Shown here one piece after another: positions 5,359-27,300 of a DNA stretch of 51,153 bases. A program made the position numbers and the translations under genes. Origin of the DNA: an uncultured archaeon (lineage in GTDB: Archaea > Asgardarchaeota > Thorarchaeia > Thorarchaeales > Thorarchaeaceae); NCBI GenBank assembly GCA_964590575.1, contig CAZPWM010000013.1, forward strand, positions 1 to 51,153, in the 5' to 3' direction. Within the stretch, counting starts at the first letter, position 1. Every line of letters begins with the position of its first letter. The notes under the pieces are model-generated. The model ran no database searches and was not told where the DNA came from. It worked only from the letters and a program-made list of their open reading frames with translations.

Positions 5359-6936
5359 TTGACTAATGATTCCTCAGTTGGACATTGTATATCATGCCAG
5401 TCGAACAGAGCAACCCACATGTGTGAGGATTGTGGGGCTCCTTTGTGCTCTGAATGTCTTGAATCTAAATCTAGTGAGTATACGGTCTGTAGTGAGTGCC
5501 ATCACAATCTTGGTTCTCCAATACCGGGTGAAAAATTCGAAACCTGCCCCATGTGTAATTCTGAGGATCTTAGCAAGGGAAAAAAGACTGTAGACATCTG
5601 CTCAAGATGCCACTCCACGAGGGTAGTACTTCTAGAAGATCGAAGAAGGTCTCTGGCACTCGACATGCGACATGCAATAATGACCATTCAATATGGACAC
5701 ACAAAGCTTAGAGAGTTCACGAATAAACTTGCGAGTACAAAAAGAATACTTGTATCCCTCAGGATGGCTAACTTTCTCCACTATAGGTGGATTGAAGAGA
5801 AGATAGAGGGGATTCAGGACGAACTTCCAGCTATCAAGAATAGAATTTCTAGCCAAGCCGAGATCATTGCTAAAAGGATGGCTGCTGAAACTAAAGATTT
5901 CATTGACTACACGCGGTGGAACCCCAATCAATTCCCGTTTATTGAAGGAATCACCAATAGAATCACGGAAATGGGTATCTACTATAAACAGAATGTTGAC
6001 GAATCACTTGAGCCTTTACGAAGCACTTTGAAAGATGTAAGAAGGCAGCTTGATGGTCTTGATTACTACAAAGCACAGTTTACGACATTCTATGAACATT
6101 GTCAACTATCGGTTGGAGAACTTCCAGTCTGTGCACTTCCTGAAATCAAAATAGCAGGAAGTGACTTTCTCAAGAATGACAAAGCCTTTGGAACACTCTT
6201 CATCACCAACAAAAGACTACTCTTCATTGCTGAAACTGGAAGAGTCCGGAAGAAGATGGAAACGACTTTTGACTTTCCATTGATTTACTTGAAGTCCATT
6301 GAAGAAGATGGTCGATTCAGAAAGCGCTTAGTACTCAAATTGAAACAGGGTGAACTTAGAGCATCGTGCTCAGATCAAACGAAGAAAGTTCTTCCAGATT
6401 ATATTGAAATCGCACGAAAGTTTGACAAATACATCCAAACAGATATGCAAAGGGTTCGTAAAATTGAGCAAACCGATGTGAGTACTAGTGATGTCAGACT
6501 TAAGATTGAAGGAATGGTATATTCACTCCTCTCGACTAATGATAGATCACAGTACGATGAAGCCACACCTCTGATTCGACCAGGTCCAAGACCACGAGTT
6601 GACGAGTGGAGAGTAACTCCTCCCCGTCGTAATCCCTATGATGGGTACTACAGAAAACCCGAATCATTCCGTGACGAGCTCGATAGAACAATTGGACGTT
6701 ACGATCAAAGACGAAATATACCTCCAAACTACGATGCAGACCCCAGATTGCATTCGTTGCAAAAAGATGCATCATCGATTGAAACTGCAATTCGAGATAC
6801 AGTACATATGCTCCGAAGTGGACAGCTCTTCGCTGAAGATTTCATCCGAAGATATCGAGACCTGATGAGAGACTCATATCATAACAGACTTGAGATCGAA
6901 CGTATTTCAAGAGAAACCCTTGACAGCCGGTGGTAA
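5359..6936 (+). CDS. ESCRT-associated multidomain protein: Zn fingers, coiled coil, PH/GRAM-like domain and a C-terminal Vps23/Tsg101-like steadiness box
   Basis: Six CxxC pairs in the first ~90 aa, then a long helical region, GTLFITNKRLLF (PH/GRAM/GLUE-like) and a Pro/Arg-rich linker. C-terminal SIETAIRDTVHMLRSGQLFAEDFIRRYRDLMRDSY resembles the steadiness box. GGAGGT SD precedes the TTG start, and the gene is adjacent to ESCRT-III. Confidence 0.7.
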   Translation: MTNDSSVGHCISCQSNRATHMCEDCGAPLCSECLESKSSEYTVCSECHHNLGSPIPGEKFETCPMCNSEDLSKGKKTVDICSRCHSTRVVLLEDRRRSLALDMRHAIMTIQYGHTKLREFTNKLASTKRILVSLRMANFLHYRWIEEKIEGIQDELPAIKNRISSQAEIIAKRMAAETKDFIDYTRWNPNQFPFIEGITNRITEMGIYYKQNVDESLEPLRSTLKDVRRQLDGLDYYKAQFTTFYEHCQLSVGELPVCALPEIKIAGSDFLKNDKAFGTLFITNKRLLFIAETGRVRKKMETTFDFPLIYLKSIEEDGRFRKRLVLKLKQGELRASCSDQTKKVLPDYIEIARKFDKYIQTDMQRVRKIEQTDVSTSDVRLKIEGMVYSLLSTNDRSQYDEATPLIRPGPRPRVDEWRVTPPRRNPYDGYYRKPESFRDELDRTIGRYDQRRNIPPNYDADPRLHSLQKDASSIETAIRDTVHMLRSGQLFAEDFIRRYRDLMRDSYHNRLEIERISRETLDSRW

Positions 6937-6939
6937 GTC

Positions 6940-7557
6940 CTATACACCGAGTTCTCGTTCTAGTGCTTTGATATCAGCCTCTAAAGACTCAGCTTCACCG
7001 ACTGGTTTTGACGTAATAGGACCCTCAGTTAGTCCAGCTTCGGCGTCAATCTCTTGAAAGGCTGAAGACAAATCTTCAGAGGTCACTTCCATGGTTGAAT
7101 CAAGAGCCTCGTCAGAGATGCTAGCTTCAATCTCGAACTCCTCAAGCCTGTGTGCAATCTCATCCACATTGGCTACAACCTTCGAAGCATCAGTACTATC
7201 GCCAAGCATACCGAGAATCTTGGCAACTTCTTGGAGAGCTATCGATGTCTTTGCTGATGTTTGAGCTCGATTCAGGTGAGCCAGAATCTTGAGGATTTGT
7301 AGTCGTGATTTATCAACGGAAAGTGCATATCTACGGAATCGCACCATTTCTGTTGCATATGTTTGATATGCTTCCGTCTGACCAGCTTTTCTTGCACGCA
7401 CAGCACGTCCTTTCGCATCTCGTTCTTCCTTCTCCAACTTGTTCCTTTGGCGCGCTAGTTGTTTTGACAAAATCCTGAGACGACTGGATATCTCACCAAT
7501 GTCTGGTTTCTTTTTGCCCCAGGAGAATGCCTTTCTAATTGAACCCAAGAATCTCAC
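6940..7557 (-). CDS. ESCRT-III subunit, Vps2/24/46-like
   Basis: N-terminal amphipathic helix, basic helical hairpin (RKAGQTEAYQTYATEMVRFRR), acidic C-terminal half and terminal MIM-like helix (LEADIKALEREL). Divergent from vps4. Confidence 0.9.
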   Translation of the reverse strand: MRFLGSIRKAFSWGKKKPDIGEISSRLRILSKQLARQRNKLEKEERDAKGRAVRARKAGQTEAYQTYATEMVRFRRYALSVDKSRLQILKILAHLNRAQTSAKTSIALQEVAKILGMLGDSTDASKVVANVDEIAHRLEEFEIEASISDEALDSTMEVTSEDLSSAFQEIDAEAGLTEGPITSKPVGEAESLEADIKALERELGV

Positions 7558-7699
7558 CTTATTCTAGGAGTGTTAACTCAGTCATTCAGAGGGATGTTAA
7601 CGTTTAAACCTTCGCAGTTCGCAGATGATATTGTGTATGTATGTACCGGGTGTGACAGAAATTCTTAACACCTTATAGGCAGTGTACACATGAACTCGA
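7558..7699. promoter_or_regulatory. Divergent promoter region between ESCRT-III and vps4
   Basis: 142-nt intergenic region between divergent starts, with TATA-like TTTAAA (~7603) and CTTATAG (~7672), and two GTTAAC palindromes (7572, 7596). Confidence 0.45.
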
Positions 7700-8920
7700 A
7701 TGTGTGCAGATAGAGTAGACCAGGGACTTAAAGCATTGCTTGCAAAAGCGATAGAGTTGGACCAGAGGGGTATGAAGAAAGATGCTTGTCAAGAGTATCT
7801 CAAAGCAAGTAAGATTCTCATTAAATTATCAAACTCTGCAGCATTGCCTTCGGTCAAAAAACATTATTTTGACAGGGCTCAAGAATGTGTAGACAGAGTC
7901 AGGTATCTCTCTGGGATCAAAAAGAAGTCACATGGACCAGTTGATGGTCTTATGGCTCCACCGAAGGTCGAAGGTGATGTAGCAGAACCAGTACGAATTC
8001 AAGAAACATCAAGGGCTGAACCAAGTCTTGATGAAGAAGAAAAACGACTCAGAGAGATGATATCAGATACTATCATCACCGAACGTCCTAAAATTAAGAT
8101 GTCAGAAGTTGCAGGTCTTGCTGATGCAAAACAAGCAATTGATGATGCAATACTGACACCCATGAAACATCCAGAGCTTTTCAAAGGTAAAGCAAGACAA
8201 CCATGGAGAGGTATTTTGTTCTATGGACCTGCAGGGTGTGGAAAGACCCTTGTTGCCAAAGCAGTGGCATCAGAAGTCAATGCAACGTTCTTCAACGTTT
8301 CAGCTGCAAACATTGTGAGCAAATGGCTAGGTGAATCAGAGCGTCTTGTGATGAACCTTTTTGAGCTCGCAAGAAAGAACCAGCCGGCAATCATTTTCAT
8401 TGACGAACTGGACTCAATAGGTGTTTCTAGATCAGGGGATGATGTTGGAGGGGAGAGACGATTGAAGACGCAATTGCTTACTGAGCTTCAAGGGCTAGCA
8501 AGCAATGTAGAAGAGCGCATTACACTCATTGGAGCAACCAATTTGCCTTGGGAGCTGGATTTCGCACTACGCTCAAGGTTTGAGAAAAAGATACATGTTC
8601 CACTTCCAGATAGACAAGCCCGTTCGAAGATATTCGAGATTCATATGGAAGATATTGAGGTTTCTCCCAACATCGAATACGACGAACTCGCAGACCTTAC
8701 GGAGGGGTATAGTGGAAGAGACATCAGTGTGGTCTGTCGGGAGGCATCCATGGAACCGATTAGGGATTTACAACGAACAGGTAGAATGGATGATGAGCAG
8801 GAGATTCTGGACATCCGTCCTGTATCAAGGGATGACTTTCTGCATGCTATAGAAAACATCCGCCCTGCAACTCCACCAGAGGATGTCAAGAGATACATTG
8901 ACTGGGCGGAGGGTTCCTAA
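7700..8920 (+). CDS. vps4: Vps4 AAA+ ATPase with N-terminal MIT domain
   Basis: MIT-like N-terminus (AKAIELDQRG...A...Y), PWRGILFYGPAGCGKT Walker A, SKWLGESE pore loop, IIFIDELD Walker B, GATNLPWELD, TEGYSGRDI; ESCRT context. Confidence 0.96.
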   Translation: MCADRVDQGLKALLAKAIELDQRGMKKDACQEYLKASKILIKLSNSAALPSVKKHYFDRAQECVDRVRYLSGIKKKSHGPVDGLMAPPKVEGDVAEPVRIQETSRAEPSLDEEEKRLREMISDTIITERPKIKMSEVAGLADAKQAIDDAILTPMKHPELFKGKARQPWRGILFYGPAGCGKTLVAKAVASEVNATFFNVSAANIVSKWLGESERLVMNLFELARKNQPAIIFIDELDSIGVSRSGDDVGGERRLKTQLLTELQGLASNVEERITLIGATNLPWELDFALRSRFEKKIHVPLPDRQARSKIFEIHMEDIEVSPNIEYDELADLTEGYSGRDISVVCREASMEPIRDLQRTGRMDDEQEILDIRPVSRDDFLHAIENIRPATPPEDVKRYIDWAEGS

Positions 8921-8923
8921 AGA

Positions 8924-9661
8924 GTGGGCGTCAAGGAGAGAAAGCGAGAGAAGAAGCAAACAGAGGAATCAACAAAACCCGCTGAACAGGGACAGGTTGA
9001 ATCATCTCCAAGCAGCAAAGAAATCGTAATTGAGGACGAGGTTCATTCCCCAGAGGTTGTTGTTGAGGTCAAAGAAACCGTGATGACTTCAGAACCGGAT
9101 CAACTAGTTGAAACTGCAAATGAAACAGCGCCAGAGAGCACTGTGAACGAACTTGATATCGCAATGCCCAGTTGGGGAAGTGTCGAAGAAACAGAATGGA
9201 TGTACGGAATCCCAACTAGAGCGGAAGATAGAGAACTCTGGGCAATGGAATGGGCGGACTACCTATTAGAATGGGCAGAGAACAAGAAAGTACACATTCT
9301 CTCATTGGCGGCCTTCATCAGTGAACCACCATTTAAGGATTTGAGAAATAAGGTAGACTCATTCAAGGCGATTGCTGCAGTCCTTGTAGACAAAGAAGTG
9401 GCTGAATGGCAAGATAAGAAAAAAAGACAACTAAGAGTCTATTGGCGACCTCTTGAGGATTGGGCAGACATTCTATACCAATGGTCACTCAAGACAGGAA
9501 AACTCAGACTTGATGTGAAATCTATTATCATTCAAGAAATTGATGAGGATTTTGCAAGTCTTCCGGAGAAAGACATACACATTGTTTTGGCTCTAATGGT
9601 GAAGAAAGGACTGGCTGAATGGATAGATGAGAAAAGGGGAGCTATTTTGATTTCTACTTAG
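8924..9661 (+). CDS. vps25: ESCRT-II Vps25-like protein with acidic, low-complexity N-terminal extension
   Basis: Vps25-like Trp pattern W..EWADYLLEW, AEW......RVYWRPLEDWADILYQW and a second winged helix ending LMVKKGLAEW; 3 nt downstream of vps4. Confidence 0.85.
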   Translation: MGVKERKREKKQTEESTKPAEQGQVESSPSSKEIVIEDEVHSPEVVVEVKETVMTSEPDQLVETANETAPESTVNELDIAMPSWGSVEETEWMYGIPTRAEDRELWAMEWADYLLEWAENKKVHILSLAAFISEPPFKDLRNKVDSFKAIAAVLVDKEVAEWQDKKKRQLRVYWRPLEDWADILYQWSLKTGKLRLDVKSIIIQEIDEDFASLPEKDIHIVLALMVKKGLAEWIDEKRGAILIST

Positions 9662-9663
9662 AA

Positions 9664-10422
9664 TTAATACATCCCGCTTGATTTTGTATCATTATTATCC
9701 CGAGCCCTGAGTCCTGGGAAGTAATAGCGACCACCTGTTGAGAACCGGATGTCTGCAACAGCCATCCCAGTTTCTACCAAACTGGATAGGACTTGCCGTG
9801 CATGATCTTCGGACCATTTGAGTTCCATAATGAGTTCCTCTACAGAAACATACCCTTTTGATGCTGCTAAGTTGATAACATCAGCTTGGTCTCTTCGTAG
9901 TTCAAGTGGTCGTAGTTCTACAACTTTCACTCCGCCTCTTAGAGTCCGTATTCCGGGAATGAGTCCGTTTTTAGCGACACGATTCACAGATTCTATGACA
10001 TCATTGTATGTCACAGATTCGATTTCAGGGAGACGTCGAACAACCTCAACTATTAGTTCTGCTAGACCCATAAGTCCCTTTGACGAGTGCTCAGTTGCAA
10101 CATCAAGTATTGCCAATCCAATATAGTCATAGTATTGGTCCATCGTCATACCCTGAGGCGATTGCCTTTGAGCATGACTTTCAAGCCGAAGCAGAGTGGT
10201 TGCTTCAGGAAAAGTTTCGAGGATTCGTTCACCAGATACAAATGTACCAATGTCAAGACCCATACGTCGCAGATTCTCAATCTGGGATTGAACATCTTGG
10301 AGAAGAGCTTGCGACTCTCTTTGAAAAGAACGAATATCAACCGCACCGAGGTCATAGAGTTTCTTCAATTGGTCTAACGTGGCGATTGATGCGTAGAGTT
10401 CTGAATGAAGGCGCTCGTGCAT
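9664..10422 (-). CDS. ESCRT-II Vps22/Vps36 (EAP30)-like protein fused to an N-terminal Vps28-N-like domain
   Basis: C-terminal tandem winged helices (YYDYIGLAILDV...GLMGLAEL; PLELRRDQADVI..A..KGYVS....LKWS......L..LVETG). N-terminal ELYASIATLDQLKKLYDLGAVD..SF......LL resembles the Vps28 N-terminus. Confidence 0.8.
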   Translation of the reverse strand: MHERLHSELYASIATLDQLKKLYDLGAVDIRSFQRESQALLQDVQSQIENLRRMGLDIGTFVSGERILETFPEATTLLRLESHAQRQSPQGMTMDQYYDYIGLAILDVATEHSSKGLMGLAELIVEVVRRLPEIESVTYNDVIESVNRVAKNGLIPGIRTLRGGVKVVELRPLELRRDQADVINLAASKGYVSVEELIMELKWSEDHARQVLSSLVETGMAVADIRFSTGGRYYFPGLRARDNNDTKSSGMY

Positions 10423-11995: not shown

Positions 11996-12229
11996 TTACA
12001 TGGGTGCCTGAACCAGCTCATAGACCCTCTCCCTCGCGTCGCCCTCATGTTCTTCTTCCCGAATAAGACCTAGAGCCTTCAGTCTACTGAGACCATAGTT
12101 CACAGTTCTAGGAGGAAGATATGTGTTGCTAATCAAGTCTTGCCGGGACATTCGTCGCCGGTCCCTAAGCAGCACGTAGAGAAACTTCGCAGAAGGAGGT
12201 AGAGACAAGAATGAGCGTCTGGCAAACAT
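11996..12229 (-). CDS. Small winged-helix DNA-binding protein (MarR/TrmB-like)
   Basis: LPPSAK.....L.....MS..DL...T.L..RTV.Y.L.RL...GLI.......DAR..VYEL pattern typical of small archaeal wHTH proteins; GGTGG SD-like motif upstream. Confidence 0.85.
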   Translation of the reverse strand: MFARRSFLSLPPSAKFLYVLLRDRRRMSRQDLISNTYLPPRTVNYGLSRLKALGLIREEEHEGDARERVYELVQAPM

Positions 12230-13019: not shown

Positions 13020-14291
13020 CTAGTGTGTAGGAACATACTGTTCAGTCGCAGGCATACTTGGTCGTTCATTGGATTGCCAAAAGTCCACAATCTTGTTCAA
13101 TAGTTCAGAGATTCCCTGTCCGGTTATAGTTGAAGCTTCAATGAAAAATAGTGGATGAGATTGTCCATTTTCACCCAGAGTCTTTGCAACCTTGTCACAA
13201 TAATCACGAGCTTCTTCTGTTGAAACAGGAACATCCACTTCATCATCCTCGTCGTCATAAACTGGATGATCACGAAGATCTGTCTTGTTTCCAACTATAA
13301 TTATCGGTGGAGGAATCAAGAAAGCATTGGATACTTCCCGCACCCAGAAATCAAGACTATCGAAGCTCCATCTATCAGCAACCGAATAAACAAGTACTAC
13401 AATTCCTGAACCTGTGTAGAATTCTGTCTTGGGCACTTTGGCGTCCATACTCTTCGGGAATGTCCAGGCATCAACTCGAACATTTGTTCCATTGTGCTCA
13501 ACTATGTTGCTGAATGTGAAAGGTTTGGTAGGTGGAAGGTTAAGAGAGGAGTAATCATTTCCAAGTTTCAGATTGCACTCAAAGATTATACTATTAACTC
13601 CAACTCCTTCCTCGCCGAGGAATAAGACCTTCAGGTCAAATAAGTCTGAGATGTCTTCAGCTGAGGGTTTCATCTCTTGAGATACATCTTCTATGGATGC
13701 TATAACTTCAGGTTCATCCCAAATGAATTTCACAGGCGTAGCTTCATCAGTATCATCAGAAGATTGTGTTCGTGGTGTTGGAGTACTTGTCGGAATATTT
13801 TCCGAGTGGAAGGAGTAAACTAACTCTTTGACTTCATCGCTGCGAGGAACATCCCATATGCTCATTGTCTGTGGAGCGGGAGTTTCTGTGCTCAGGCCTT
13901 CAAGTTCAGGGGAGGAATCAATTAGGTTACTTTCGTCATCATGAGCAATCTTGAATTTACCAGTTGGGGAGAGGAATTCATCCTTCAGCGAATCAAGCAT
14001 ATTCAAAGCTCGGGATAGCTCAAGAAGGTCATCCTTTGTTAGCTCATCCTCCCCAGGAATCACATCAACCTCAGGAAGGCCAACTCTTTTCAACATGAAT
14101 TTGAGAATAGGTTGAGGAACATTGAACCCTCGAAGATAAGCGAATCGTTGCACTTCCTCCATAATTTCTTTGAAGGATCTACCAGAGAACTCGAGTCTTC
14201 GAGTGACAGCGGGGTCTGTAATGTATAAACGCTTGGCCTTGAGACTTACATCAATGTTGGTCCCTGGGATTTGCATCTTTACGACAACCAC
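13020..14291 (-). CDS. Rab/Ras-like small GTPase domain protein with long N-terminal extension and degenerate G1/G3
   Basis: LKVLFLGEEGVGVNS (G1), VLVYSVADRWSF..L..W, IIVGNKTDL (G4), FIEAS..TGQGI.EL (G5). About 235 aa precede the G domain. Confidence 0.85.
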   Translation of the reverse strand: MVVVKMQIPGTNIDVSLKAKRLYITDPAVTRRLEFSGRSFKEIMEEVQRFAYLRGFNVPQPILKFMLKRVGLPEVDVIPGEDELTKDDLLELSRALNMLDSLKDEFLSPTGKFKIAHDDESNLIDSSPELEGLSTETPAPQTMSIWDVPRSDEVKELVYSFHSENIPTSTPTPRTQSSDDTDEATPVKFIWDEPEVIASIEDVSQEMKPSAEDISDLFDLKVLFLGEEGVGVNSIIFECNLKLGNDYSSLNLPPTKPFTFSNIVEHNGTNVRVDAWTFPKSMDAKVPKTEFYTGSGIVVLVYSVADRWSFDSLDFWVREVSNAFLIPPPIIIVGNKTDLRDHPVYDDEDDEVDVPVSTEEARDYCDKVAKTLGENGQSHPLFFIEASTITGQGISELLNKIVDFWQSNERPSMPATEQYVPTH

Positions 14292-14528: not shown

Positions 14529-15161
14529 GTGTTGAAAGTGATAGAAGTTATTGTCACCCTATCGGATGGTACTAACGAAGCAATTGCCATCGAAGCGCAT
14601 TCAAAGATAGTGAACCTTTCAAATCGTTCAATTATTACGGTCGATCTTACAGAACTCGATAATTTGGAGGGGCTTGAAGAGCTTATTCTAAGCGGGAATA
14701 GTCTAATGACCATTGATTTGACAGTGCTAGCTTTCAGTCCTGCAATTCGAACTATACTTCTAGATCATAACAATTTACAGATTTTAAACATAGATTCGTT
14801 AGGTTATTGCACAAATTTGGAGCAGTTTAATCTGAGTTCAAATCAACTCCTAAGAGTTGATCTCTCTGCAATTTCAGGGTGTAAGAACCTAGTATCTCTA
14901 AACTTGGAAAAAAATAAGCTCATGAATCTAGATGTTGCTCCCATCTCAAAATGTGCAAAATTAGAGGAACTAAACCTTCTTGAGAATCCACTCAAACGAC
15001 TAGATTTAACAGCTCTTTTCTCATGCGCGTCTCTCCGATCGCTGTTGATTCCAGAAGACACTAGGCTGATCTCAAAGAAAAAATTTGAGATTGAGATACT
15101 AAATCCTCCAGCACTCAACGAGCTGATGTCCAATGGGAGAATTGAATTCTCTTTAGATTAG
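14529..15161 (+). CDS. Leucine-rich repeat protein, predicted cytoplasmic
   Basis: About six 22-aa LxxLxLxxNxLxxxDL repeats (LEELILSGNSL, LEQFNLSSNQL, LVSLNLEKNKL, LEELNLLENPL); no signal peptide. Start uncertain. Confidence 0.9.
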   Translation: MLKVIEVIVTLSDGTNEAIAIEAHSKIVNLSNRSIITVDLTELDNLEGLEELILSGNSLMTIDLTVLAFSPAIRTILLDHNNLQILNIDSLGYCTNLEQFNLSSNQLLRVDLSAISGCKNLVSLNLEKNKLMNLDVAPISKCAKLEELNLLENPLKRLDLTALFSCASLRSLLIPEDTRLISKKKFEIEILNPPALNELMSNGRIEFSLD

Positions 15162-15341: not shown

Positions 15342-18300
15342 ATGAAAAAGGAAATAGCCGCTTTAGCAATAGTATTCATTTTCTTAATTCCTTTAGCTAG
15401 TGGTCCTGCTCCTGAAGGGAGATTCCCTTACTTTGAGGGAGCTACATCTAAGGGAGATGATTTTCTTCTTAGTGATTGGCAGGATGGCACCTCGGGTAAT
15501 GGAGATCCTTTACTCGGGAACCTCAACGGGCTGAGAGTTGCTAGTGGAACATCTGTCATTGATTATACACATTCGGGTTATGTTGGCATTGATCCGCCCT
15601 TGGGGTGGAGTTCTGGAGAACTGGAAGGACAGCTTGACCATCTTTCCATGTGGGTGGATTCAGAACTTGTTAATCCAAGACTTGATACATATCACACTGA
15701 AAAGCGATTCTTCACTGGTTCTGACTCGCAGTATAATGGTGATGATTTCCGTGTCCCTGATGGTTGGACACTCGTGAAGAATGACATCCCCTCTGCTGGA
15801 ACTCAACATCCTGAGCACGGGTGCTTAGAGGTTAATTCCTATAGTGGAAATGGATATGATAGTACTATGGGCTGGAGGTTCGATGCCAATTATGGTAGTG
15901 GCGAAATTCTTAGTCCCTCGGTCGAGGTATATATGAACCAACTGATTGCAGCACCTTGGCGAGCGATATATTCTGCAGAAATCTCCTTCCGCTACTACGT
16001 TTCATCCGTATCCGTCATGGATGATGACTTCTACATTTTCACTAGATTAGAAAGCTACACTTCAAAACATCATGTGTTTGAATCAACCGACCCTACAGAA
16101 ACCTGGCTTGAAGCTACAGCATCTGTCCCATCTTCATTTCTAGAATATTTGGAAAATCCAAATTCACTGCTTTTTGACATAGGTCTTGGAACTGACCTAA
16201 GTGGCCTATCAGGTGCTTCGGATCACGAAGTGTATATTGATGAGATAGAGCTGAGGCTCTTTGTACGCCCATTCCCTGAACAGATTGATCTCCGCGCTAA
16301 TGGAGCTCAGGTGACCGGTTCAACTCAGGGTAGTGTGAGCCCGTATGTTCCTGACGGAGCTAACAGGGATTGCTATAGCTGGGAGGATGATGGAGGCGTA
16401 GATCTTGATGGTTATGGCAACAATGGTTGGTTAGAGGTTGGGGCGGATGCGCCAGCATATCCGGACTGGAGTACTGCTTCTTCATATCAGGTTGGGTTTC
16501 AATTCCCTCTTTATGTGTCCCAAGGAGCATCTATTACATCAGCATATATGAGAGTCGAAGCAGCAAGTGACTCAACTGGTTATCCTGGTATGCGTGTTTA
16601 TGTAGCAAATGAGGATAATGTAGCTGCATTCACAAATGGATACCCTACTCTCCCAGATAGGTATGACTGGGTGAATACAAGTATCTATTGGCGTCCAACA
16701 ACATGGACAGTCAATGGGAGGTATGATACACCGGATATTTCAGCCCTCATTCAGGATGTGGTTTCGAAACCGGGGTGGCAGAGCGGCAACTACATCTGTA
16801 TAATGCTAGATTATGCTTATTCAAACCAAGACTATACATATAATCAAATTAAAGGCTCAACAGGATTCACACAAGCAGATCTTGCTAGACTCTTTGTAGA
16901 TTTCATTGAAAAAGAGCCTAGTGACACAATACCTAGTTTCAGTTTCAACAAGAAGCTGGTCATTGACCATACCAAAGTCATTTCGGATCTTCAAGATTTC
17001 CCGGTTCTTATTGACATATGGGACGAGAATCTTCATCTGGATGCCCAGGCAGATGGCGATGACATTGCTTTCATGTACAATGGTCAAGTGATTGACCACG
17101 AAATTGAGTTATTCGAAAAACAGGGAAATGGAACTCATGCACATCTAGTCTGTTGGGCCAAAGTTCCTCATCTGTCATCATCTGAAGACACCACAATAAC
17201 AATGGTGTATGGTGATGACGATCTTGGAAGTCAAGAAAATCCGGAAGGTGTATGGGATTCTGGTTACTCAACAGTTTGGCATCTGAATGACAACCCAGCT
17301 CAGCCCCAATGGGTTTCTGCCTACGCCGATTACGTGCCGCATCAACCTCAGGTTCTAGATAGTACATCACCCATGACTGGTGGTACAACCTATGGGACAA
17401 TGACATCAACTGATAGTGTCAGTGGCCAAATCGGAAGTGCAATTGATCTTGAAGGCGTGAATGATTTTGTTGATTTCGGAGACCCAACGGAATTGCAGAT
17501 GGCTGGAGCATTCACAGTCGAAGCTTGGTTCAAGGCCGATTTCATAGATAATGACTATCTTGTTGTTAAGTCCGGTGAGAGTAACTACCGTGGTTGGGAT
17601 ATCAGTTTTGATGATGACTCTTCCATAAGTCCTGCGGGTTGGGTTATGTTTAGATTTAGTCCAGATGGGGTAAACACAAACATCGTGGGTTTTGAGCGTG
17701 TTGATACAGGTCAATGGTATCATGTTGTTGGAGTCTTCAATCCTTCAGTATCTGCAAGATTCTACCTAAATGGTGAACTAGTCGATGAGATGACGTCCGG
17801 TGTGCCAGCGTCCGTGAACGACCCAAGTCGCCCTGTTAGAATTGGTCGGAGATCCGATAATCCTGGAGGAACGTCATATCTTGATGCGATTGTTGATGAG
17901 GTACGGATTTCGAATGTTGCTAGGTCTGATGCTTGGATTAGGACGCAATATTACAATCAGAGAAATCCCGAGCTCTTCATCGCTGTTGACGAAGAAAGTG
18001 TCAACTTCCAGTATATGAAAGACATTACTATCAATCACAATGAAGTTGCATCTGACCTCAAGGGTTTCCCGGTATTGATTGACATCTTTGATGCTGACCT
18101 GCACACAAATGTCCAGTCAGATGGCGATGACATAATGTTCACCTCAAATGGAAGAAGTATTCCACATGAGATAGAACTGTTTGACCAACAATACAATGCT
18201 ACTCATGCACACCTGATTGCTTGGGTCAAAGCAGACCTTTCTTCTTCATCTGACACGATACTGACAATGTACTACGACAACCCATCAATAGGAAGCCAAG

Positions 18301-21300
18301 AAAATCCCGACGAAGTTTGGCGTGCAGATTATGCAGGTGTCTGGCATCTTGGCGAATTAAGTGGTAGCGCTATTGATTCCACTTCCTTTGGTATATCCGG
18401 CTCAGTCAGTGCAGGAGTCACCAGAAATCAAGTAGGCATCGCTGGAAGTTGCTACGAATTCAATGGCGCAAACGGGAATGTCAACTTTGGAAATCCATCT
18501 GATGGTCATCTTGATTATGGAGAGAACGCCTTTTCCTTTAGTCTATGGGTCCGTGTAGACCAAAGCACAGGAAACTATCAGCTCCCCTTGTTCAAAGGAG
18601 GTACTACAACGTCTGATGCAGGATATGAGATTGAAAGCAATGTAGTAGGATCAAATCTGAAAGCTGAAGTCTCAGATGGGGCAATACAAGTAATCTCAGA
18701 CTCAACTCCTGTAACTTTTGGGCAATGGCTTTACCTAGTAGCTGTTGTGGATGTTGCGGCAAGCCTTCTCAGATTCTATAGCAACGGTGCTTTAGTGGGC
18801 TCATCGATGGACATTAGTTCGTTGGGTGATGTGAGTAACTCTCAGAATTTTCAGTTATCCCCCCTGTTATATCCGGTTGATGGTGCAATTGACGAACTTC
18901 GAGTGATGAGTAAAGCACTTACAGCAAGTTGGATTCTTACGGAGTATAATAATCAACTAAATCCGTCTAACTTCTATAACATAGGAAGTGAACAAGAAGT
19001 CATAATTCCTAAAGAAGTCCCCCTTGGATTCATGTACCAGAAAGTAATCAGCATAGACCATAACATGGTGGATGCAGACCTCTCTGGATTTCCAGTTCTT
19101 ATTGATATGTATGATACTGACCTTCGAACTGATGTTCAGGTTGATGGCGATGATATCCTATTTGTAAAGGATGGGTGGATACTACCACACGAAATCGAAC
19201 TATTTGACCAATCGTATAACTCCTCACATGGACATCTCATTGCATGGGTAAGAACAGACCTCTCTTCTACGTTTGATACAATTTTGTCAATGTACTATGG
19301 AAACCCTAGTTCAGAAAAGCAAGAGAATCCAGAAGGAGTTTGGGATACTTCCTTTGCCGCAGTCTGGCATCTTAGCGAAGATCCAGCTAGTGCAGTTTAT
19401 GATAGCACTGCAAACAGCAACGAGGGCATAGGGCTTTCAAGCGGCTCTGAACCCACCCTTCAGACAGGAAAAATATACGAATGCATTGAGTTCTTTGGAG
19501 AAGCTACTAACGACCGAATTCAGGTGGCTCACTCTTCATCTCTTGTGCTCCAAACTAATATCATGGTAGAAGCATGGATACGTACAAACAATACTGATTC
19601 AACATCAGACGCAATTCTCGCCAAATGGGGAGATGTAGGTCATAGAAACTATTGGCTGGGCAAGTTCGATGGGTCAACTCTCGCATTTTATGTTGACAAC
19701 ATGCAGAGTGTTACTGCATCACTGAGCTATGTAAATGATGGCGACTGGCATCATGTCGTGGGTGTGGCGAATTCAGGAACAGGTAACTTGCTTCTGTATA
19801 TTGATGGGATTGAACGTGGAAATGCAGCCTACAGTGGGTCAACACAAACTGGAACCTCAGTCCTTCATATTGCTAACAATCCGGGCTCGGTTGGGTTCAT
19901 TCAGGAATGGGATGGTCGAATAGATGAAGTGCGTGTTTCAAGCTCATCTAGGAGTTCTGGTTGGATTTCAACAGAATTCAAGAATCAGTATAATCCAACC
20001 AGTTTCTATTCAATCGGATCAGAAGTACCTGTTCAACCTGTTAGGTTATCATATAAGAAAGATATAGTGGTCGATCACACTAAGGTCGTAGCGGACCTGA
20101 CAGGCTTCCCACTTCTCATTGATATCTTTGATAGTGATCTTAAGACGAGGACTCAGCTAGATGGAGATGATATTATCTTTAAATCAGGGGCGTCACTGTT
20201 ACCACATGAAATTGAACTCTTTGATCCTGATTACAACTCCACGCATGCCCATCTTGTCGTATGGGTCAAGATTGATCTATCATCAACTGTAGACACTTAC
20301 GTCACAATGTACTATGGCAACTCAGAAGCGACCAACCAAGAAAATCCTGCAGGAGTATGGGATGACAATTATATTGGAGTGTGGCACTTGGGAGAAACCA
20401 CCGGTGGTAGCAACTCAATCAAAGATTCAACATCACAGGCTAACCATGGCACTGACTTTGGCGGTCCTACATTTGGAGTTAATGGGGCAATTGGAAATGC
20501 CATCGGATTCGATAGTAGCCCTTACATCCAGATCCAAGATAGTGTTAGTCTGGACTCAATAGCAACCGGAATCACAATTTCGGTTTGGACTCAAGCAGAT
20601 CCATACGTATGGGAAATACCAGTACTTGCAAAAGGAGGGGAGGATACTGGTGCATTCTCTCTATTTTATTACCGTTCAAGTGGTACGAACGACATATGCT
20701 ATAACTTGGACGGGGTTTCTAGCGGACCTCAGCATACTGGAGAACCCGTAACAAGGACTGGATGGATGCATGTTGTTCTTACCTATGATGGACTCTACCT
20801 AAAAGTCTACAAAAACGGCGCTCTAGCATCTTCACAGCTTATTCCTTCTACCCCATCAATCATCAGTAATAACGAGCCCTTGTATATCGGGTATGAATCG
20901 GACTATGATGATGATTTCTTGGGCATTATCGATGAAGCAAGACTTTCAGCCTCTGCCAAGCCAGAAGATTGGATACTAACAGAATACAATAACCAATACA
21001 ATCCAAGCTCCTTCTATTCCATTGGATTGGAGGAACAAATCAGTGACAATGGATACATCTTCACTACAAGTTCTGAATCTAGTGTAACAATTGGAGCTAA
21101 GCTTTCACTAGGAGTTCAGACCTCTGCACATAGCTATGCAGATGATTTTACTTTAGGCACATCATTCTCAATAGAAAATAGTACCCTACCAATTTGGACT
21201 GCAGGTGTGTTGGTTTCTCCGCCACCTGAAATAACGGCGCTATCATTCGAGATTTCCTATCCAGAGGGTGAATGGTGGCCATTTTCTGTCAAGAGTCCTT

Positions 21301-24300
21301 CAGGTGCAGAGAAGGGATTTGCTACGGACTGGACATGTTTTGATGGAAGACTAATTGTGGGATCAGATGCAATAGACGAATATGGTATGTGGCAGATACA
21401 ATTCCTGGACAGGAACCATGTTCTTGACACACAAATGGGTCCAACTGGAGGGCCCTATTCATCCACCGACCAGTTCACAATTGGCGAAGACATCCAGTTC
21501 CGGGTCTGGAGTTCTGGAACTATAGGGTCTACAATCTCTCTTGAGTTGACAGACCCATCAGGCTCTTCGTGGTATACGGGATCTACAACATTTCAAGGAC
21601 AGAGATTCACGCTACCATACTACCACAGAAAGTATCTAACAATTAGTCATGAAAATGTTGCTGAAGACCTTGGTAACTTTCCAGTACTTGTTAACATATA
21701 TGACTCTGACCTTCGTACAGATGTTCGTTCCGATGGTAGAGATATCGCCTTCGCGATTGGTGAAGAAACACTCTCGCACGAGATAGAACTTTTCGACCAG
21801 ACATACAACCTAACTCATGCTCATCTTGTGGCATGGGTAAATGTGCCAGTGCTCTCAGGTTCGACTGACACCGTAATTAGTATGTATTATAGTAATCCTT
21901 TGGCTCCAATAGTATATGATTCTGGACCAGTTTGGGATTCTGGTTATTTGGGAGTCTGGCATCTAGCGGAAAGTGGAACTGGAGCACCAGACGAGTATCT
22001 AGACAGCAGCCAGTACAAGAACCATGGGCAAGGTGGAGAAGGAAACAGCTCATTCGTTCCAACTCAGGTCTCCGGCAAGATTGGCTCTGGTCAGGACTTC
22101 AACAATCTAGACGGGTATTATGATCTTATCGACTGCGGTGATAGTCCTCTATGGGATATTGATGGGTATCAGATAACTCTCGAAGCATGGATTCAGCATG
22201 ATATCACTCCCAATAATCATGTCTATGGGATTATGAATCACAAGGGATGGTATGATGGGTATGCTTTGTACATCAATTACGGAGGTGGCTCAACCCTAAA
22301 ACCAACCTTTAGTCTTCCAGGTGAAACTCATCAACTAGTAGGAGCCAATGATGTAACGGGTAGTTCTTGGCACCACATTGTTGCAACGTACGATGGGTCA
22401 CTGATGAGGATCTATGTGGATGGTGTTCAGGATCCAAATGTTTTGGTGAAGACAGATGCGATAAAACCTTCAGCATACGAGAAGGATTTCTGGATAGGAC
22501 ACGGAGACCAGCCAAAGGATAAAGCTTGGAGTGCTGAATGGGAGGGCCAGATTGACGAGGTGCGTATTTCTGATGTTTTACGATCAGTAGGTTGGATTCA
22601 GACAGAGTTTGAGAACCAATATAATCCAAGTAGTTTCTACTCGGTTGGAGCAGAAGAAACTATAGGGTATTCAGAGTCTGCTTCCATCAATTTGGATACT
22701 TCAGCTCCTGCAGGAGTCTGGCGTGCAACAGCTCGATACAGTGATGGTAGTTCTTATGTGAGTCATAGAGTGGGCATGTTTGCTAGGAGCTTTATCGTGA
22801 AGCGTGGAACTTCATTAAGCCTCACCGCACCTGGAGATGCTATAGCAGATGGTATTTCAACCAAACTTGTTGGTGAGCAACTCTATGTTGAATTTGAGCT
22901 AGAAGATGCATTGAATGCGGCATTGGTGAGTGGAGCAACAGTATACATGAACTGGAGTGTTAGTGGTGTGCCCACGGAAGTCCAGCTCAACGATTATGGA
23001 GATGGGAGATATGGTAAGACTTTCAATACGTCTGATCTGGGAAGTTATGGAAGATGGCGACTAGACCTTGAAGCGTCGCACCAGTTTTATACTAATGCAA
23101 CAGATTTCTTCTATTTGGATCTCTCTCATAGGACTTTTCTGACCTACGAACCTCCACTTGACGCACCGTATGGAGATAATTTTGAAATCAGATTGACGTT
23201 AAAGGACCAGCTTGATAATGCACCTCTGACAGGCGCATCTATCTCATGCAATGCAACAATTCTAGGAATACCAACTGACTATGGAAATGGCACGTACTTG
23301 GTGACGGTTGATAGTTTAGGGTTCTCTATTGGAGAGTATACATTTAGGTTCACAGCCACGCCAAGCACTTCATACCTCCTGAGTAGCAATATTGATGTTC
23401 AGTTTAGTTACCGACCCATTGCTACTGATGCGACACCTCTTAGTCCTGATTCTGTTGAAGCACCATGGGGTCAGCAAGCCAATACAAGCATATACTGGTA
23501 TGATGTCGATCACGCAGGAATTGGAGTAGAGGGCGGTTCATTGAACATCTCTCCATTTGTCCAGACTCAGACTTTTGAGGGAGGCGGCGGTTTCTATGAT
23601 GTAATAATCGATGTCAGTTCCTTTACACCTGGAACCCACTTCTTCAACCTAACATGGTCAAAACTGAACTATCAATCATTAATAACCACCATAAGCGTCA
23701 CAATTCTTGCACATAGAACAACACTCAGTGTAGAGTATAACTCAACTATCCCTGTTGGGACTGATGCTTACTTTGATGTTTCTTGGTTGGATTTGAATCT
23801 TGACTCAAGTGCAGTCAATAGCGGTAATCTAAGTCAGGTAAATTTGGATTGGGGTATAGGAAGCGCAAGTTCCCTTACTCTTGGATTCTGGTTGGATACC
23901 AGTAGTTGGTCGATTGGTTCGTACTCAATTAACGTGACAATAAGCGCAACAGATTCTCCAAGATTCTACATGGATTCTTACATTTTGATTAACCTTGAGG
24001 TCCGAAAATTAAATGTATACTTGAGTTGGGATCCTCTTGAGCCATTTCCTAATGGAAACGACTTCGTGATGTTTATCCATGTGAATGTAAGCGAACCGGG
24101 TGGTTCAATCGATGGCACACCCATTACGGGGCTTGATCAGACCTATTTTAGTGCGAGAAATGAAACGGGCGGACTCTACACCTTCGAGAGCTTCACAAAC
24201 CTCGGAAATGGACTCTATCAACTCACCATTGACAGCACAAGGTTCTTAGAAGGACAGTATAAGATCATTGTTTTTGTTGATTTCCTACCAGCAGAAAACT

Positions 24301-27300
24301 ATAGAGATACTAATACTCCTCAAATTCAATTTACGTATCGTCCAATTCTGACATATCTATCATCTCCAGACTATCCGACAGTGACAACTAGTTTTGACAC
24401 AAATGTCACAATCACACTCTCATATGTTGATATTGATCATGTTCAGAATATTACTATCGGTATAATCACCTCAGGGGGAGCATCGATTGTCTGGCAACAC
24501 ATGGGTAGTGGAGTATATGAGGTTCTGATAATTGTCCAGGGATGGGACCTTGGAGCTCATGAAGTGAATCTAACAGCAGATGCAAGTGGTTACCAGGCGA
24601 AGACACTGACTTTTCAGATTCTCGTTCAAATTGCATATGCATATGCTAGGTCTTCAGTTTCTATAATCGATTTGCCAGTTGGGGATACCGCAGTCTTTTA
24701 CGCAGACTACTGGGACATCACACATGATGATCCCATTCTCGGAGCAACTGTCAATCATAACTGGACCTATTCTTTGAGTATTAGTTGGACCGGTGACCAA
24801 TATAGAATCGAACTGCCAAGTAAAGACACAGACGCACTGGGTTCCTACTTGATTATCTTCAACTTTTCAAAGGGGTCCAACTATCAATTTGGATACTTCA
24901 ACATAAGCATCATTCTAAGGACTCATTTAACCGAGTTTAGACTTGCGAGTGCTGTTGAACCTACAAGCTATAATGCCATGGTCAACATATCGATATATTG
25001 TGGCGATCTCGATAATGATGCCGGAATTATTGATGCTCCGGTTAATCTGTCAATATACGGTGACTCAGGATGGATTCTTGCAACCTTTGAAAATGACTCA
25101 GCATTGGGAGATGGATACTATATTATTAGATTCGCAGCTACGAATTTGGGAATCTCTGGTATCTACCAACTCACCGTATATTTCAACTGGACAGGTCCTG
25201 TTCAGAAATACTACGACCGTTCAGTTACAGCATTTGTGAGTATAGTTGGAGAGGCATCAAATCTTGAGTTGATTGATTCATCTGAACCCACGCCATATCT
25301 AGGAAATCTGAGTTATACCTACCTCTATAGTGAACTTTACAGTGGAAATGGCATCTCTAACGTATCTGCTCCAGCAGGAAATGTGTTTATCTATGTAGAT
25401 TTTGTTGGCCAAGCATTCAGTCCGTCTCTGTTTACAATTACCGAGGATAGCGGAAATCCAGGTTATTATTCAATCGAGTTCAACAGCACGATATTTGAAC
25501 GACCAGGAGTATACACAATGATTGTATACGTGAATTGGTCGAAGGGGGTTGAGCCGGGTTATGGCAACTGGACTGATACTGTTTCAGTTCGTATCATTCC
25601 AAGAAGTACTGTGGTCAATTTGATTCCACCTGAAAGCACGCCCTATGGAGTCAATGCAACATTCTCTTTCTCATTTGATGACGTGGCAGAAAGCAGTACA
25701 TACAGAATTGCAAACAGTCCTCAGATGACAATCAGTATTGGGTTGCCAGATTATTCCATAACATATAACGAGTTCACAAGACAATTCCAAGTTTCCTTTA
25801 ACACTAGCATCTTAGGAGAACCTCTGGGAAGCCGACAGTTCACAATAAGTGTCACTTGGAGTGGATCCCCATACTATGCTAATGTGACTGGAAGACAAGT
25901 TATCATTAGTATTAGATTCCGTGAAACAGAATTTGATTATTCGACAGTTAGTCCAACAGCCTATGGTGACAATGTGACTCTGCGTTTCATGTTCACTGAT
26001 ATCACATTAGGAATATCGAAAGCAATCGAAGATGGATTAGTCACCCTATATAATGGCTCACAGGAAATCCCTGTATCTGAATACTCTTTCACGCCACTTG
26101 GAAATGGAGAGTATGATATCGAGCTGAGGACAACATACTTCACAAACCCAGGCACATATACAATTACAGTACAAATGAGTACAAGCCATTTCTACTATGC
26201 TTTAGTCACCGCCTCACGAACACTTAGCCTACAATATAGACTGACTGTCCTTCTTGTAGAGCCTGTGGCAGAGACCCCATACAACAACTCCCTTGAAGTA
26301 GTGTTCCATTATAGTGATCTACTGACTCTGACTGAAATTGACAATAGTTCAACACCAACAACAATTCGAATCCTAAATGGAAGTTCATGGCTCTTCAGTT
26401 CAGTATGGAGAGGCGCTTCAGAAGATTATCTTCTCACAGTCCTAACATATAATCAAAATCTTGAGATAAACAGGGATTATATTCTTTGGATCGAGGTTAG
26501 CTATCCGGACTCCTCGCCATTCTATCTGTCTGCTGAAGCATTTGTGTCATTCACTCTGCGAGAGCGAGCGACCAACCTGGAACTAACATCATCACCGGAA
26601 CCAACGCAATATCTAGAGAACATCAACTTCACAGTATATTATCAAGACTCGTTGTCCTTGGATGGGATCGCTGGAGCCACCATTACTCTAACAGTCGGTG
26701 GAGTGGACCTAGTTGAAGGAACCGACTACATACTACAAAGTCCAACAGAGGGTATCTATGAAATTTCACTCAACACAACCGCACTAGGACCAGCTGGGAC
26801 AACAATTAACCTAGGATTAGGAGCATCTTGGACCTCAAATGCACCATATTACTCGACTTCTACAATAAGTTTCACGCTCAGTGTTACGCAGAGAAACTCC
26901 ATTACTGAAATTTTGGCTTCGACAACGCAAGTCGAATTCCTTGAGAATGTCACGTTCACAATAATGTATGGTGATGAAACAACAGGACAAGTAATCCAGC
27001 TAAGCAAAGATCAGTTGCTGATATACAGCGAGGGGGTTCTATTACAAAGCAATGATTTCTCGATGAATTATTCAGGCTCCAGCTATGAGGTTTCTCTCAA
27101 CTCGTCAGTTTTGAATATTGGATTAGTCAGTAATTGGAATCTCACATTCTATATAAATTGGCAGAACAATGTTGCACCATACTATGCTGATGGTCGTGCA
27201 TCAGCTTGGGTAACCGTGGTCAACAGAGTCGGGATTGTAATCCGTGATGCAGCACCGACTGTTCCAATACATGACAACATGACCCTCAAGTTCACATATG

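Follow-up and report, generated by a model that had tools for sequence, protein, structure and literature searches.

Introduction

[quoted passage not shown] This system is a cluster of five genes, named A to E below, found at positions 5359-10422 of a stretch of 51,153 nucleotides (the window) from an uncultured archaeon of the family Thorarchaeaceae (assembly GCA_964590575.1, contig CAZPWM010000013.1). The first study (Hatano 2022, Nat Commun 13:3398, PMC9192718) lists in its Supplementary Data 1 the genes ThorAB25_08990 (SB, for steadiness box), 09000 (ESCRT3A), 09010 (Vps4), 09020 (Vps25) and 09030 (Vps22) of the Thorarchaeota genome AB_25, and these AB_25 orthologs of all five genes of our cluster were its Thorarchaeota two-hybrid constructs. 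The same paper reports ESCRT-IIIB as a partner of Vps25, and states that Thorarchaeota are seemingly without ubiquitin, as does the preprint 10.1101/2021.08.17.456605. Its Supplementary Data contain no two-hybrid table.

In the second study (Makarova 2024, mBio 15:e00335-24, PMC10936438), a protein named Znr_CC_PH_SB (cog.011556) is presented as a likely, and probably ancestral, component of Asgard ESCRT-I, with a PH domain that is expected to be membrane-associated. Asgard Vps22 (cog.002769, labelled 'Vps22#') is described there as fused to a steadiness box, and Thorarchaeota proteins are annotated 'EAP30/Vps36 family protein fused to Vps28'; in Table S3, residues 1-70 of KXH75178.1, from SMTZ1-45, match PF03997 with a probability of 99. 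The domain fusions and the absence of ubiquitin were therefore already published in 2022 and 2024, and the initial annotation of the window, made from the sequence alone, was right to warn that parts of such clusters might have been described: the genes, the fusion and the missing ubiquitin are all covered by these two papers. With the architecture published, what was not found in their texts is a contact between proteins A and E, its stoichiometry, or the ligand of the Zn ribbons of A. In neither text was it found spelled out that the hairpin of Znr_CC_PH_SB binds the Vps28 N-terminal (Vps28-N) domain of the fused Vps22, and the figures of the two papers may show it.

We report here that the cluster is almost certainly the conserved chromosomal ESCRT cluster of Thorarchaeia, gene-for-gene orthologous to ThorAB25_08990-09030, that protein E is a true Vps28-N/Vps22 chimera, and that a hairpin of protein A is a candidate partner for its Vps28-N domain. 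To this explanation as a whole, a Thorarchaeial ESCRT cluster together with the mechanism proposed below, we give a probability of about 0.8.

Results

A conserved five-gene ESCRT cluster

The interval 5359-10422 is filled by exactly five adjacent open reading frames (ORFs) on alternating strands, the largest gap being 143 bases. Gene A (5359-6936, plus strand, 525 amino acids (aa), TTG start) encodes a Znr_CC_PH_SB protein, a probable ESCRT-I-like adaptor. It is followed by gene B (6940-7557, minus strand, 205 aa), encoding a predicted class A ESCRT-III protein (Vps2/24/46-like), by gene C (7700-8920, plus strand, 406 aa) for the AAA+ ATPase Vps4, by gene D (8924-9661, plus strand, 245 aa) for the ESCRT-II subunit Vps25 with an acidic N-terminal extension of ~95 aa, and by gene E (9664-10422, minus strand, 252 aa) for the Vps28-N/Vps22 fusion. 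These are the five contiguous ESCRT genes named in the initial annotation, and all their domains were backed by Pfam, PDB profiles and AlphaFold2 models.

A search for related loci yielded 30 of them, 24 being labelled Thorarchaeota, including those of AB_25 (L014) and SMTZ1-45 (L018). In the synteny survey, a check proposed with the initial annotation, the same gene order and strands (A+ B- C+ D+ E-) were kept in all 24 loci present on a long enough contig. Six loci (L005, L010, L012, L013, L017 and L028) are cut by a contig end and were left out of this count. The flanks are kept too, with ArgRS and a TldD/PmbA pair upstream and AspRS downstream. Public sequencing runs listed with the locus comprise 20 DNA runs and 0 RNA runs.

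The resemblance to the AB_25 set is close. It has the same five genes in the same order, and identities between the AB_25 locus and proteins A, B, C, D and E are 85, 90, 92, 80 and 87%, respectively. It differs in that the window belongs to another species-level genome, and in that the SB construct of Hatano 2022, 505 aa long, has as its first residue the one numbered Met21 here. Protein E is called simply 'Vps22' in the Hatano set. The window thus adds one genome to the published picture, and no new component.

Protein E joins a Vps28 N-terminal domain to Vps22

In Pfam searches, E matched EAP30 (4.7e-15, residues 66-224), and, below threshold, VPS28 (PF03997, 0.068, residues 7-63). At E<=1e-3 it has 136 homologues, the 120 best listed being 61-99% identical; names among the matches listed are all those of uncultured Asgard metagenome-assembled genomes, mostly Thorarchaeota, with two Promethearchaeota and one Lokiarchaeota. 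The AlphaFold2 model of E (pLDDT 73.4) consists of a hairpin and short helices, then two winged helices. The winged helices (residues 94-240; 9703-10143, minus strand) are of Vps22 type, with structural matches to 2zme_A (Z 10.1), 1u5t_A (Z 10.0) and 3cuq_A (Z 9.4), and a profile match to the last of these, human SNF8/Vps22, at 6.8e-17.

Residues 1-80 (10183-10422, minus strand), with helices at 2-24 and 30-53 followed by short helices up to 78, form the Vps28 N-terminal (headpiece) domain. The model of residues 1-79 superposes on 6vme_U, a chain of the human ESCRT-I headpiece whose subunit is left unnamed by the tool (Z 11.4, root mean square deviation (rmsd) 1.8, 77 aa). It superposes as well on two Vps28-N chains, 2f6m_D (Z 10.5, rmsd 2.0, 78 aa, 22% identity) and 2caz_B (Z 9.4), the rmsd for all three chains being 1.8-2.1 over 77-78 residues. 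E also contains an invariant ELYASIATLD stretch. A profile of the first 80 residues found matches in 100 of 151 Asgard genomes. In the window's own family, f1 (25 of 26 genomes, in addition to that of the window), and in its sister family, f2 (1/1), the matching frames were 191-320 aa long, nearly all of them ~250-280 aa. In other families, matches at 1e-17 to 1e-7 fell mostly in frames of 205-235 aa (some up to ~357 aa) or of 467-490 aa, and outside the window's own order they correspond to stand-alone Asgard Vps28 proteins or to UEV-Vps23-Vps28 fusions. The initial reading of E as a Vps28-N domain joined to Vps22 is therefore borne out by the fold as well as by this profile, and we concluded that E is a true chimera of the two.

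Like cog.002769, E carries a Vps28-N (SB) domain before two winged helices. In the genomes covered by the profile search, fused proteins were seen only within the order to which the window belongs (f1 25/26, f2 1/1); the label given to such fusions in Makarova 2024 is used there for Lokiarch_37450 as well. Two genomes bear on how the fusion is built. In G108, of family f2, the 265-aa ortholog of E matches both EAP30 (8.9e-15) and, this time above cut-off, VPS28 (PF03997; 5e-6, 26.9 bits), and its gene adjoins that of Vps25. In G070, of another family, the match is a full-length Vps28 (PF03997 2.5e-17, profile positions 2-186), whose gene lies between a UEV-Vps23 gene and a full-length Vps22 gene, all co-directional. 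The EAP30 match of E begins only at profile position 75, which indicates that the native N-terminal helices of Vps22 are gone. Taken with the position of vps28 directly upstream of vps22 in another family, this makes a deletion joining the two neighbouring genes the simplest origin that the sequences suggest for E.

As for the rest of Vps28, the PF03997 match of E covers only profile positions 2-60, so that no full Vps28 with its C-terminal four-helix domain is present in E, and the other two weak PF03997 matches in the genome are to unrelated proteins. One, on contig C53, is a 410-aa protein without Vps28 support in Pfam or PDB, and the other, on contig C171, has an IFT52 GIFT domain. E is alone in the genome in matching EAP30 above cut-off, and no Vps36 paralogue with a GLUE domain was found in that search. 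A weak second match to EAP30, on contig C9, proved to come from the winged helix of MCM.

Protein A, a probable ESCRT-I-like adaptor with a Vps23-type hairpin

No Pfam family matched A above cut-off; below it were zf-B_box (8.3e-4) and bPH_3 (0.019). At E<=1e-3, A has 166 near-length homologues, and the full-length ones among the matches listed span all 525 residues. The 120 best listed of the 166 are 52-90% identical, except for the automatic gene call of A itself, P0023 (100% over 80% of the query), and the source names among the matches listed are all uncultured Asgard, mostly 'Candidatus Thorarchaeota archaeon'. A comparison with 1.84 billion cluster representatives gave 93 matches, the distant ones (20-30% identity) covering only residues ~10-395.

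The call P0023 gives a protein of 418 aa that starts ~107 residues downstream, so missing the 5359-5679 region. The TTG start at 5359 is better, because homologues conserve the whole 525 residues. Across the 30 related loci, and with start codons assigned by a nearest-start rule, the start codon of A was TTG in 22, ATG in 6 (one of which is a truncated locus) and GTG in 2. The Zn-ribbon part of A is probably lost from automatic annotations.

The AlphaFold2 model of A has a mean pLDDT of 86.4 and a pTM of 0.67. Residues 1-91 (5359-5631, plus strand) comprise three Zn ribbons with 12 conserved Cys, beta strands being found at 20-91 in the model. All these Cys are in CxxC pairs: across 52 aligned sequences, C81 and C84 do not vary, and C10, C13, C22, C25, C30, C33, C44, C47, C63 and C66 are at least 90% conserved. 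The region has the sub-threshold zf-B_box match in Pfam and sub-threshold matches to RING, B-box and FYVE profiles. It is followed by three long helices (92-136, 144-177 and 189-247), which form a coiled-coil or stalk at residues 92-247 (5632-6099, plus strand) with a pLDDT mostly above 90.

Residues 248-360 (6100-6438, plus strand) form a PH-like domain, modelled at 256-353 as a beta sandwich capped by a helix, for which types GRAM and GLUE are among the best structural matches. With VIA-align, residues 243-359 matched the PH-GRAM domain of MTMR2 (1lw3, Z 12.5, rmsd 2.8, 107 aa), Lam6 (5yqr, Z 11.5), the GLUE domain of EAP45 (2hth_B, Z 11.4, rmsd 3.5, 106 aa) and BBS5 (Z 11.3). Such matches span Z 10.6-12.5, the best ones being tied within ~1 Z, and Foldseek agreed on the PH fold (E 5.7e-5 to 2.3e-4). 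The top Foldseek matches of whole A were to DH-PH RhoGEF proteins (E 8e-6 and weaker), with a TM of ~0.2 and an rmsd of ~20 A. As VIA-align fits only the PH part well, we read them as 'long helices plus PH', and A was not retained as a GEF.

After a disordered and poorly conserved linker (residues 400-457; 6556-6729, plus strand; pLDDT <50 at 395-436 and 445-457; mean identity 0.42 over 23 orthologs), A ends with a helical hairpin, the steadiness box, of Vps23 type (residues 458-525; 6730-6933, plus strand; helices 462-487 and 492-524; pLDDT 91-97). A family profile of this hairpin matched yeast Vps23 in the PDB (2p22_A 2.2e-5, 2f66_A 3.2e-5, 2caz_A 9.6e-5), then, with weaker values, TSG101 (6vme_B, 0.0029) and CdvA (0.02); Pfam Vps23_core matched the steadiness box weakly (0.146). 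In other Asgard families, the same profile region also matched UEV-Vps23 genes at their C-terminal ends. Invariant EDF-RR and LM positions are found in the hairpin. With its 12 Cys, three long helices, PH-like fold and Vps23 profile matches down to 2.2e-5, A has the four parts predicted for it in the initial annotation, which are also those of cog.011556 (three Zn ribbons, coiled coil, PH, steadiness box, all four found).

These results bear on the idea that A is no ESCRT component at all, and that it is a mere conserved neighbour in a frozen housekeeping neighbourhood. The flanking ArgRS, TldD/PmbA and AspRS genes are indeed equally conserved, and in the tables of Makarova 2024 the Lokiarchaeum cog.011556 gene has a ribosomal protein gene and MetE as its neighbours and is remote from the ESCRT genes, unlike gene A, which is directly beside those of ESCRT-III and Vps4. 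We hold this idea to be very improbable all the same, given the Vps23-type steadiness box (2e-5), the match of this same region to UEV-Vps23 C-termini in other Asgard families, and the treatment of A as ESCRT-I-like in both Hatano 2022 and Makarova 2024.

An ESCRT-I-like A is not a peculiarity of Thorarchaeia. Its profile matched 147 of 151 Asgard genomes, and full-length relatives (model ~5-510, E<1e-100) were found in families f7, f9, f12, f15, f16 and f19, where ubiquitin was detected in 5/5, 39/40, 17/19, 4/4, 5/5 and 6/6 genomes, respectively. A PH-bearing SB protein thus coexists with a ubiquitin route, and is not special to a ubiquitin-free system. Of the proposed rearrangement of ESCRT-I and -II domains, both placements stand, with the PH fold on the ESCRT-I-like subunit and Vps28-N on the ESCRT-II subunit; the part concerning A does not stand as a Thorarchaeial rearrangement, A being phylum-wide and present beside ubiquitin.

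Absence of a ubiquitin system

The genome of the window (3.40 Mb, 194 contigs, 91.45% complete) was searched in six frames. No match to ubiquitin, to the E2 family UQ_con or to UEV (PF05743) was obtained over the whole genome, and no ubiquitin-system family was present among 17 other ORFs of the window scanned at 1e-5. Searches for the same three families over the phylum served as positive controls. Ubiquitin was found in 139/201 Asgard genomes and in 0/43 of family f1, UEV in 41/121 and 0/17, and E2 in 61/81 and 0/9. Family f1 is not the only one of this kind: ubiquitin was found in f17 in 0/5 genomes and in f20 in 1/7, and single genomes of f2, f6 and f11 were without a match. The window was therefore correctly read as devoid of UEV, ubiquitin, E1, E2 and JAB genes, and no canonical UEV-Vps23/ubiquitin system serving the locus was found elsewhere in the genome. 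Thorarchaeia look like a lineage that kept the PH-bearing SB branch and lost the UEV/ubiquitin branch.

One ThiF gene (2.1e-67, contig C53) and one JAB gene (1.0e-4, contig C49) are present in the genome, neither of them near the ESCRT locus. They raise the question of another small modifier, of the ThiS/MoaD type (SAMP or Urm1-like), activated by a ThiF-type E1 and read by the Zn ribbons of A, in which case the pathway would still be tag-dependent. The three Zn ribbons of A are candidate ligand readers, and yeast Vps36 binds ubiquitinated cargo through one of its Zn fingers (Makarova 2024). We nevertheless regard such a modifier as quite improbable: ThiF was found in 12/14 control genomes, and so belongs to ordinary sulfur-carrier chemistry and gives no evidence of a ubiquitin system; ThiF and JAB are far from the locus, and neither E2 nor UEV was found.

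A possible pairing of the A and E hairpins

The hairpin of A and the N-terminal domain of E point to the two partners of one solved complex. The A hairpin profile matched the Vps23 sequence u26322, which is held in PDB entries 2f66 and 2f6m, and the E domain matched Vps28 chains of 2f6m, an entry titled 'Structure of a Vps23-C:Vps28-N subcomplex'. When hidden Markov models (HMMs) of the two hairpins were run on the 22,028 ORFs that the genome has in six frames, they found only themselves, and the E-values that came next were 0.94 and 0.12. No homology between the A steadiness box and the E Vps28-N domain was detectable (hhalign probability 0.8%), which fits a heterotypic pair. Both hairpins are conserved and the linkers are not: over 23 paired orthologs, mean identity is 0.64-0.84 in the folded parts of A and 0.76-0.89 in those of E, with 0.42 and 0.46 in the respective linkers. 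By homology with the eukaryotic complex, we judge the chance of a direct contact between the A hairpin and the Vps28-N domain of E to be somewhat better than even.

This arrangement resembles the eukaryotic ESCRT-I headpiece (2F6M, 2F66, 2CAZ, 2P22, 6VME), the A hairpin being similar to Vps23 by sequence profile and the E N-terminal domain to Vps28 by structure. Unlike eukaryotic ESCRT-I, it has no UEV on the Vps23-like subunit, the N-terminus of A being made of Zn ribbons, and no Vps28 C-terminal domain, and its Vps28-N is covalently linked to ESCRT-II. With eukaryotic ESCRT-II it shares the Vps22-type double winged helix, Vps25 and a GLUE-like PH fold in the system. It differs from eukaryotic ESCRT-II, made of Vps22, Vps36 with its GLUE domain and two Vps25, by a single EAP30 paralogue and the lack of Vps36; the PH domain is here on the ESCRT-I-like protein, whereas the eukaryotic GLUE is on Vps36.

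A mechanism can be proposed on this basis. A would act as an ESCRT-I-like adaptor whose PH-like domain and Zn ribbons may meet the membrane, the cargo or both, as their folds suggest. Its steadiness box would pack on the Vps28-N domain of E, by homology with Vps23-C on Vps28-N in the ESCRT-I headpiece. Because the Vps28-N domain and the Vps22 winged helices of E belong to one chain, ESCRT-I and ESCRT-II would then be covalently joined, and a non-covalent Vps28-C bridge would not be needed. E would self-associate, as indicated by the two-hybrid results of Hatano 2022, and presumably bind Vps25, as its homologues do. Vps25 would recruit ESCRT-IIIB, after which ESCRT-IIIA and Vps4 would remodel the membrane and disassemble the polymer, a sequence suggested by homology and by the two-hybrid summary of the same study. 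Within the limits of draft genomes, entry into the pathway would not be ubiquitin-directed in Thorarchaeia, since a lineage with no ubiquitin, E2 or UEV offers no such route.

We propose, at what we would call even odds, that ESCRT-I and -II of Thorarchaeia have collapsed into one hard-wired assembly, with the steadiness box clamped on the Vps28-N domains of dimeric Vps28N-Vps22, perhaps in a three-hairpin headpiece to which Vps28-N gives two hairpins and SB one, and with the PH domain and Zn ribbons selecting membrane or cargo without ubiquitin. If true, this would amount to a minimal way into ESCRT-III that occurs in nature and uses no tag. In its initial form, the claim was that of a ubiquitin-independent chain contained in the locus. 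Its first half agrees with the lack of ubiquitin, E2 and UEV in the genome and family; its second half had to be given up, as ESCRT-IIIB, the Vps25 partner of Hatano 2022, is encoded on contig C18 and the recruitment chain is thus not wholly encoded in the locus.

Several points weigh against the proposed assembly. Compared by sequence only with PDB Vps28, the E N-terminal domain gave no significant match (E 0.2-0.6, amid ferritin and MukE), and a genome of the same genus (G087) has no E N-domain detectable with the N-terminal profile. Three hairpins make up the eukaryotic headpiece, and here no more than two kinds could be detected: no third hairpin was found with the HMMs of the two local ones, no search with Vps37/Mvb12 families being made. 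Membrane binding by the PH domain of A would hold by analogy with other PH domains. Hatano 2022 says of the free-standing SB protein only that it 'may interact with Vps28', and its Thorarchaeota construct list holds no separate Vps28. Lastly, a draft genome (91.45%, 194 contigs) does not prove that small genes like that of ubiquitin are missing, though 43 relatives agree.

A different role for the N-terminal hairpin of E is to be weighed here. It might mainly dimerise E, as an ESCRT-II stalk replacing the N-terminal helices of Vps22 and Vps36, A docking elsewhere or not at all. The Vps22 N-terminal helices, which probably promote the Vps22-Vps36 contact (introduction of Makarova 2024), are gone from E, as the start of its EAP30 match at position 75 indicates; the genome has only one EAP30 gene, and Thorarchaeota Vps22 interacted with itself in two-hybrid (Hatano 2022). 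We find this role unlikely as the main one, because the E domain is structurally a Vps28-N, whose solved partner is the Vps23 hairpin, and A has the sole such hairpin of the genome. Moreover, E could both dimerise and bind A: one SB together with two Vps28-N would make three hairpins, as in the eukaryotic headpiece.

A is phylum-wide, the fusion is confined to the window's order within the set of genomes searched, and in another family vps28 and vps22 are neighbours that point the same way. This suggests that the Thorarchaeial state results from loss of the ubiquitin/UEV-Vps23 branch together with a vps28-vps22 gene fusion, and not from a separate invention. The clearest example of ESCRT-I/II-like parts at work in the absence of ubiquitin is that of Thorarchaeia, and A and E make a compact, well-conserved pair for testing ESCRT-I/II recruitment without a ubiquitin tag.

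Another SB-type protein has been described in the lineage. Table S3 of Makarova 2024 lists a Thorarchaeota 'BAR-SB' protein, KXH73277.1, with BAR (1-110) and Vps28 2J9U_A (155-235) matches, both at a probability of 84, and this protein could be a further ESCRT adaptor.

ESCRT-III, Vps4 and Vps25

The ESCRT-III/Vps4 core is present in the genome, with both Snf7 classes and a Vps4 having AAA, Vps4_C and MIT domains. Protein B matched Pfam Snf7 at 2.2e-10, and its best PDB matches were CHMP1B (9e-9), CHMP2A (6.2e-5), CdvB (7.1e-5) and CHMP3 (1.6e-4). By these similarities, it is classified as a class A, CHMP1B/2A/3-like ESCRT-III protein. The genome has two Snf7 genes, B and one on contig C18, the latter being class B (Heimdallarchaeota ESCRT-IIIB 9ftl 1.1e-11, Snf7 4e-6). 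This ESCRT-IIIB gene lies at 4564-5229 of contig C18, on the minus strand, and its protein begins with MGFLSGKK.

In Pfam, C matched AAA (9.9e-40), AAA_lid_3 (2.7e-13), Vps4_C (7.8e-5, above cut-off) and MIT (7.3e-4, below cut-off). NCBIfam gave only sub-cut-off CdvB and CdvC similarity on the locus, the match of C to CdvC (8e-80) being below the curated cut-off. D matched ESCRT-II/Vps25 (PF05871, 6e-15, residues 100-194), and is the sole PF05871 match of the genome. With the Snf7 match of B and the AAA and Vps4_C matches of C, the assignments of these three genes in the initial annotation hold. Identities of D are the lowest of the five genes across the related loci (45-80%). Its residues 1-95 (8924-9208), outside the Pfam match, are acidic, of low complexity and less conserved than the rest of Vps25; extra N-terminal subdomains in Asgard Vps25 are reported by Makarova 2024.

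Neighbouring genes

Downstream of AspRS, a 77-aa ORF (11996-12229, minus strand) without a Pfam match at 1e-5 is shared by 24 of the 30 related loci, at identities of 75-96%; its SMTZ1-45 counterpart is an ArsR-family HTH regulator in Table S2 of Makarova 2024. Further on, 2.6 kb from the ESCRT cluster, a 423-aa protein (13020-14291, minus strand) has a Ras/Roc small-GTPase domain at residues 221-402 only, no domain being assigned to its N-terminal ~220 aa. Of the 30 related loci, 10 have this GTPase downstream (L004, L008, L009, L014, L015, L016, L018, L022, L023 and L024), and the deeper-branching ones do not. A gene for a 210-aa leucine-rich-repeat protein (14529-15161, plus strand) adjoins it.

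Two giant ORFs then abut on the plus strand, at 15342-30872 (5176 aa) and 30872-42805 (3977 aa). In the 5176-aa ORF, DUF2341 and five Laminin_G_3 stretches (8.1e-96) lie within the first 3000 residues; beyond these, and throughout the 3977-aa ORF, no Pfam family was matched at 1e-5. Both are probably huge surface proteins. At the end of the window, a frame on the minus strand (48911-51046), open at that end, encodes a fragment of a family B DNA polymerase (DNA_pol_B, 2.2e-26) split by an intein (Intein_splicing, 7.2e-6) with a LAGLIDADG-like domain (LAGLIDADG_3, 2.2e-6).

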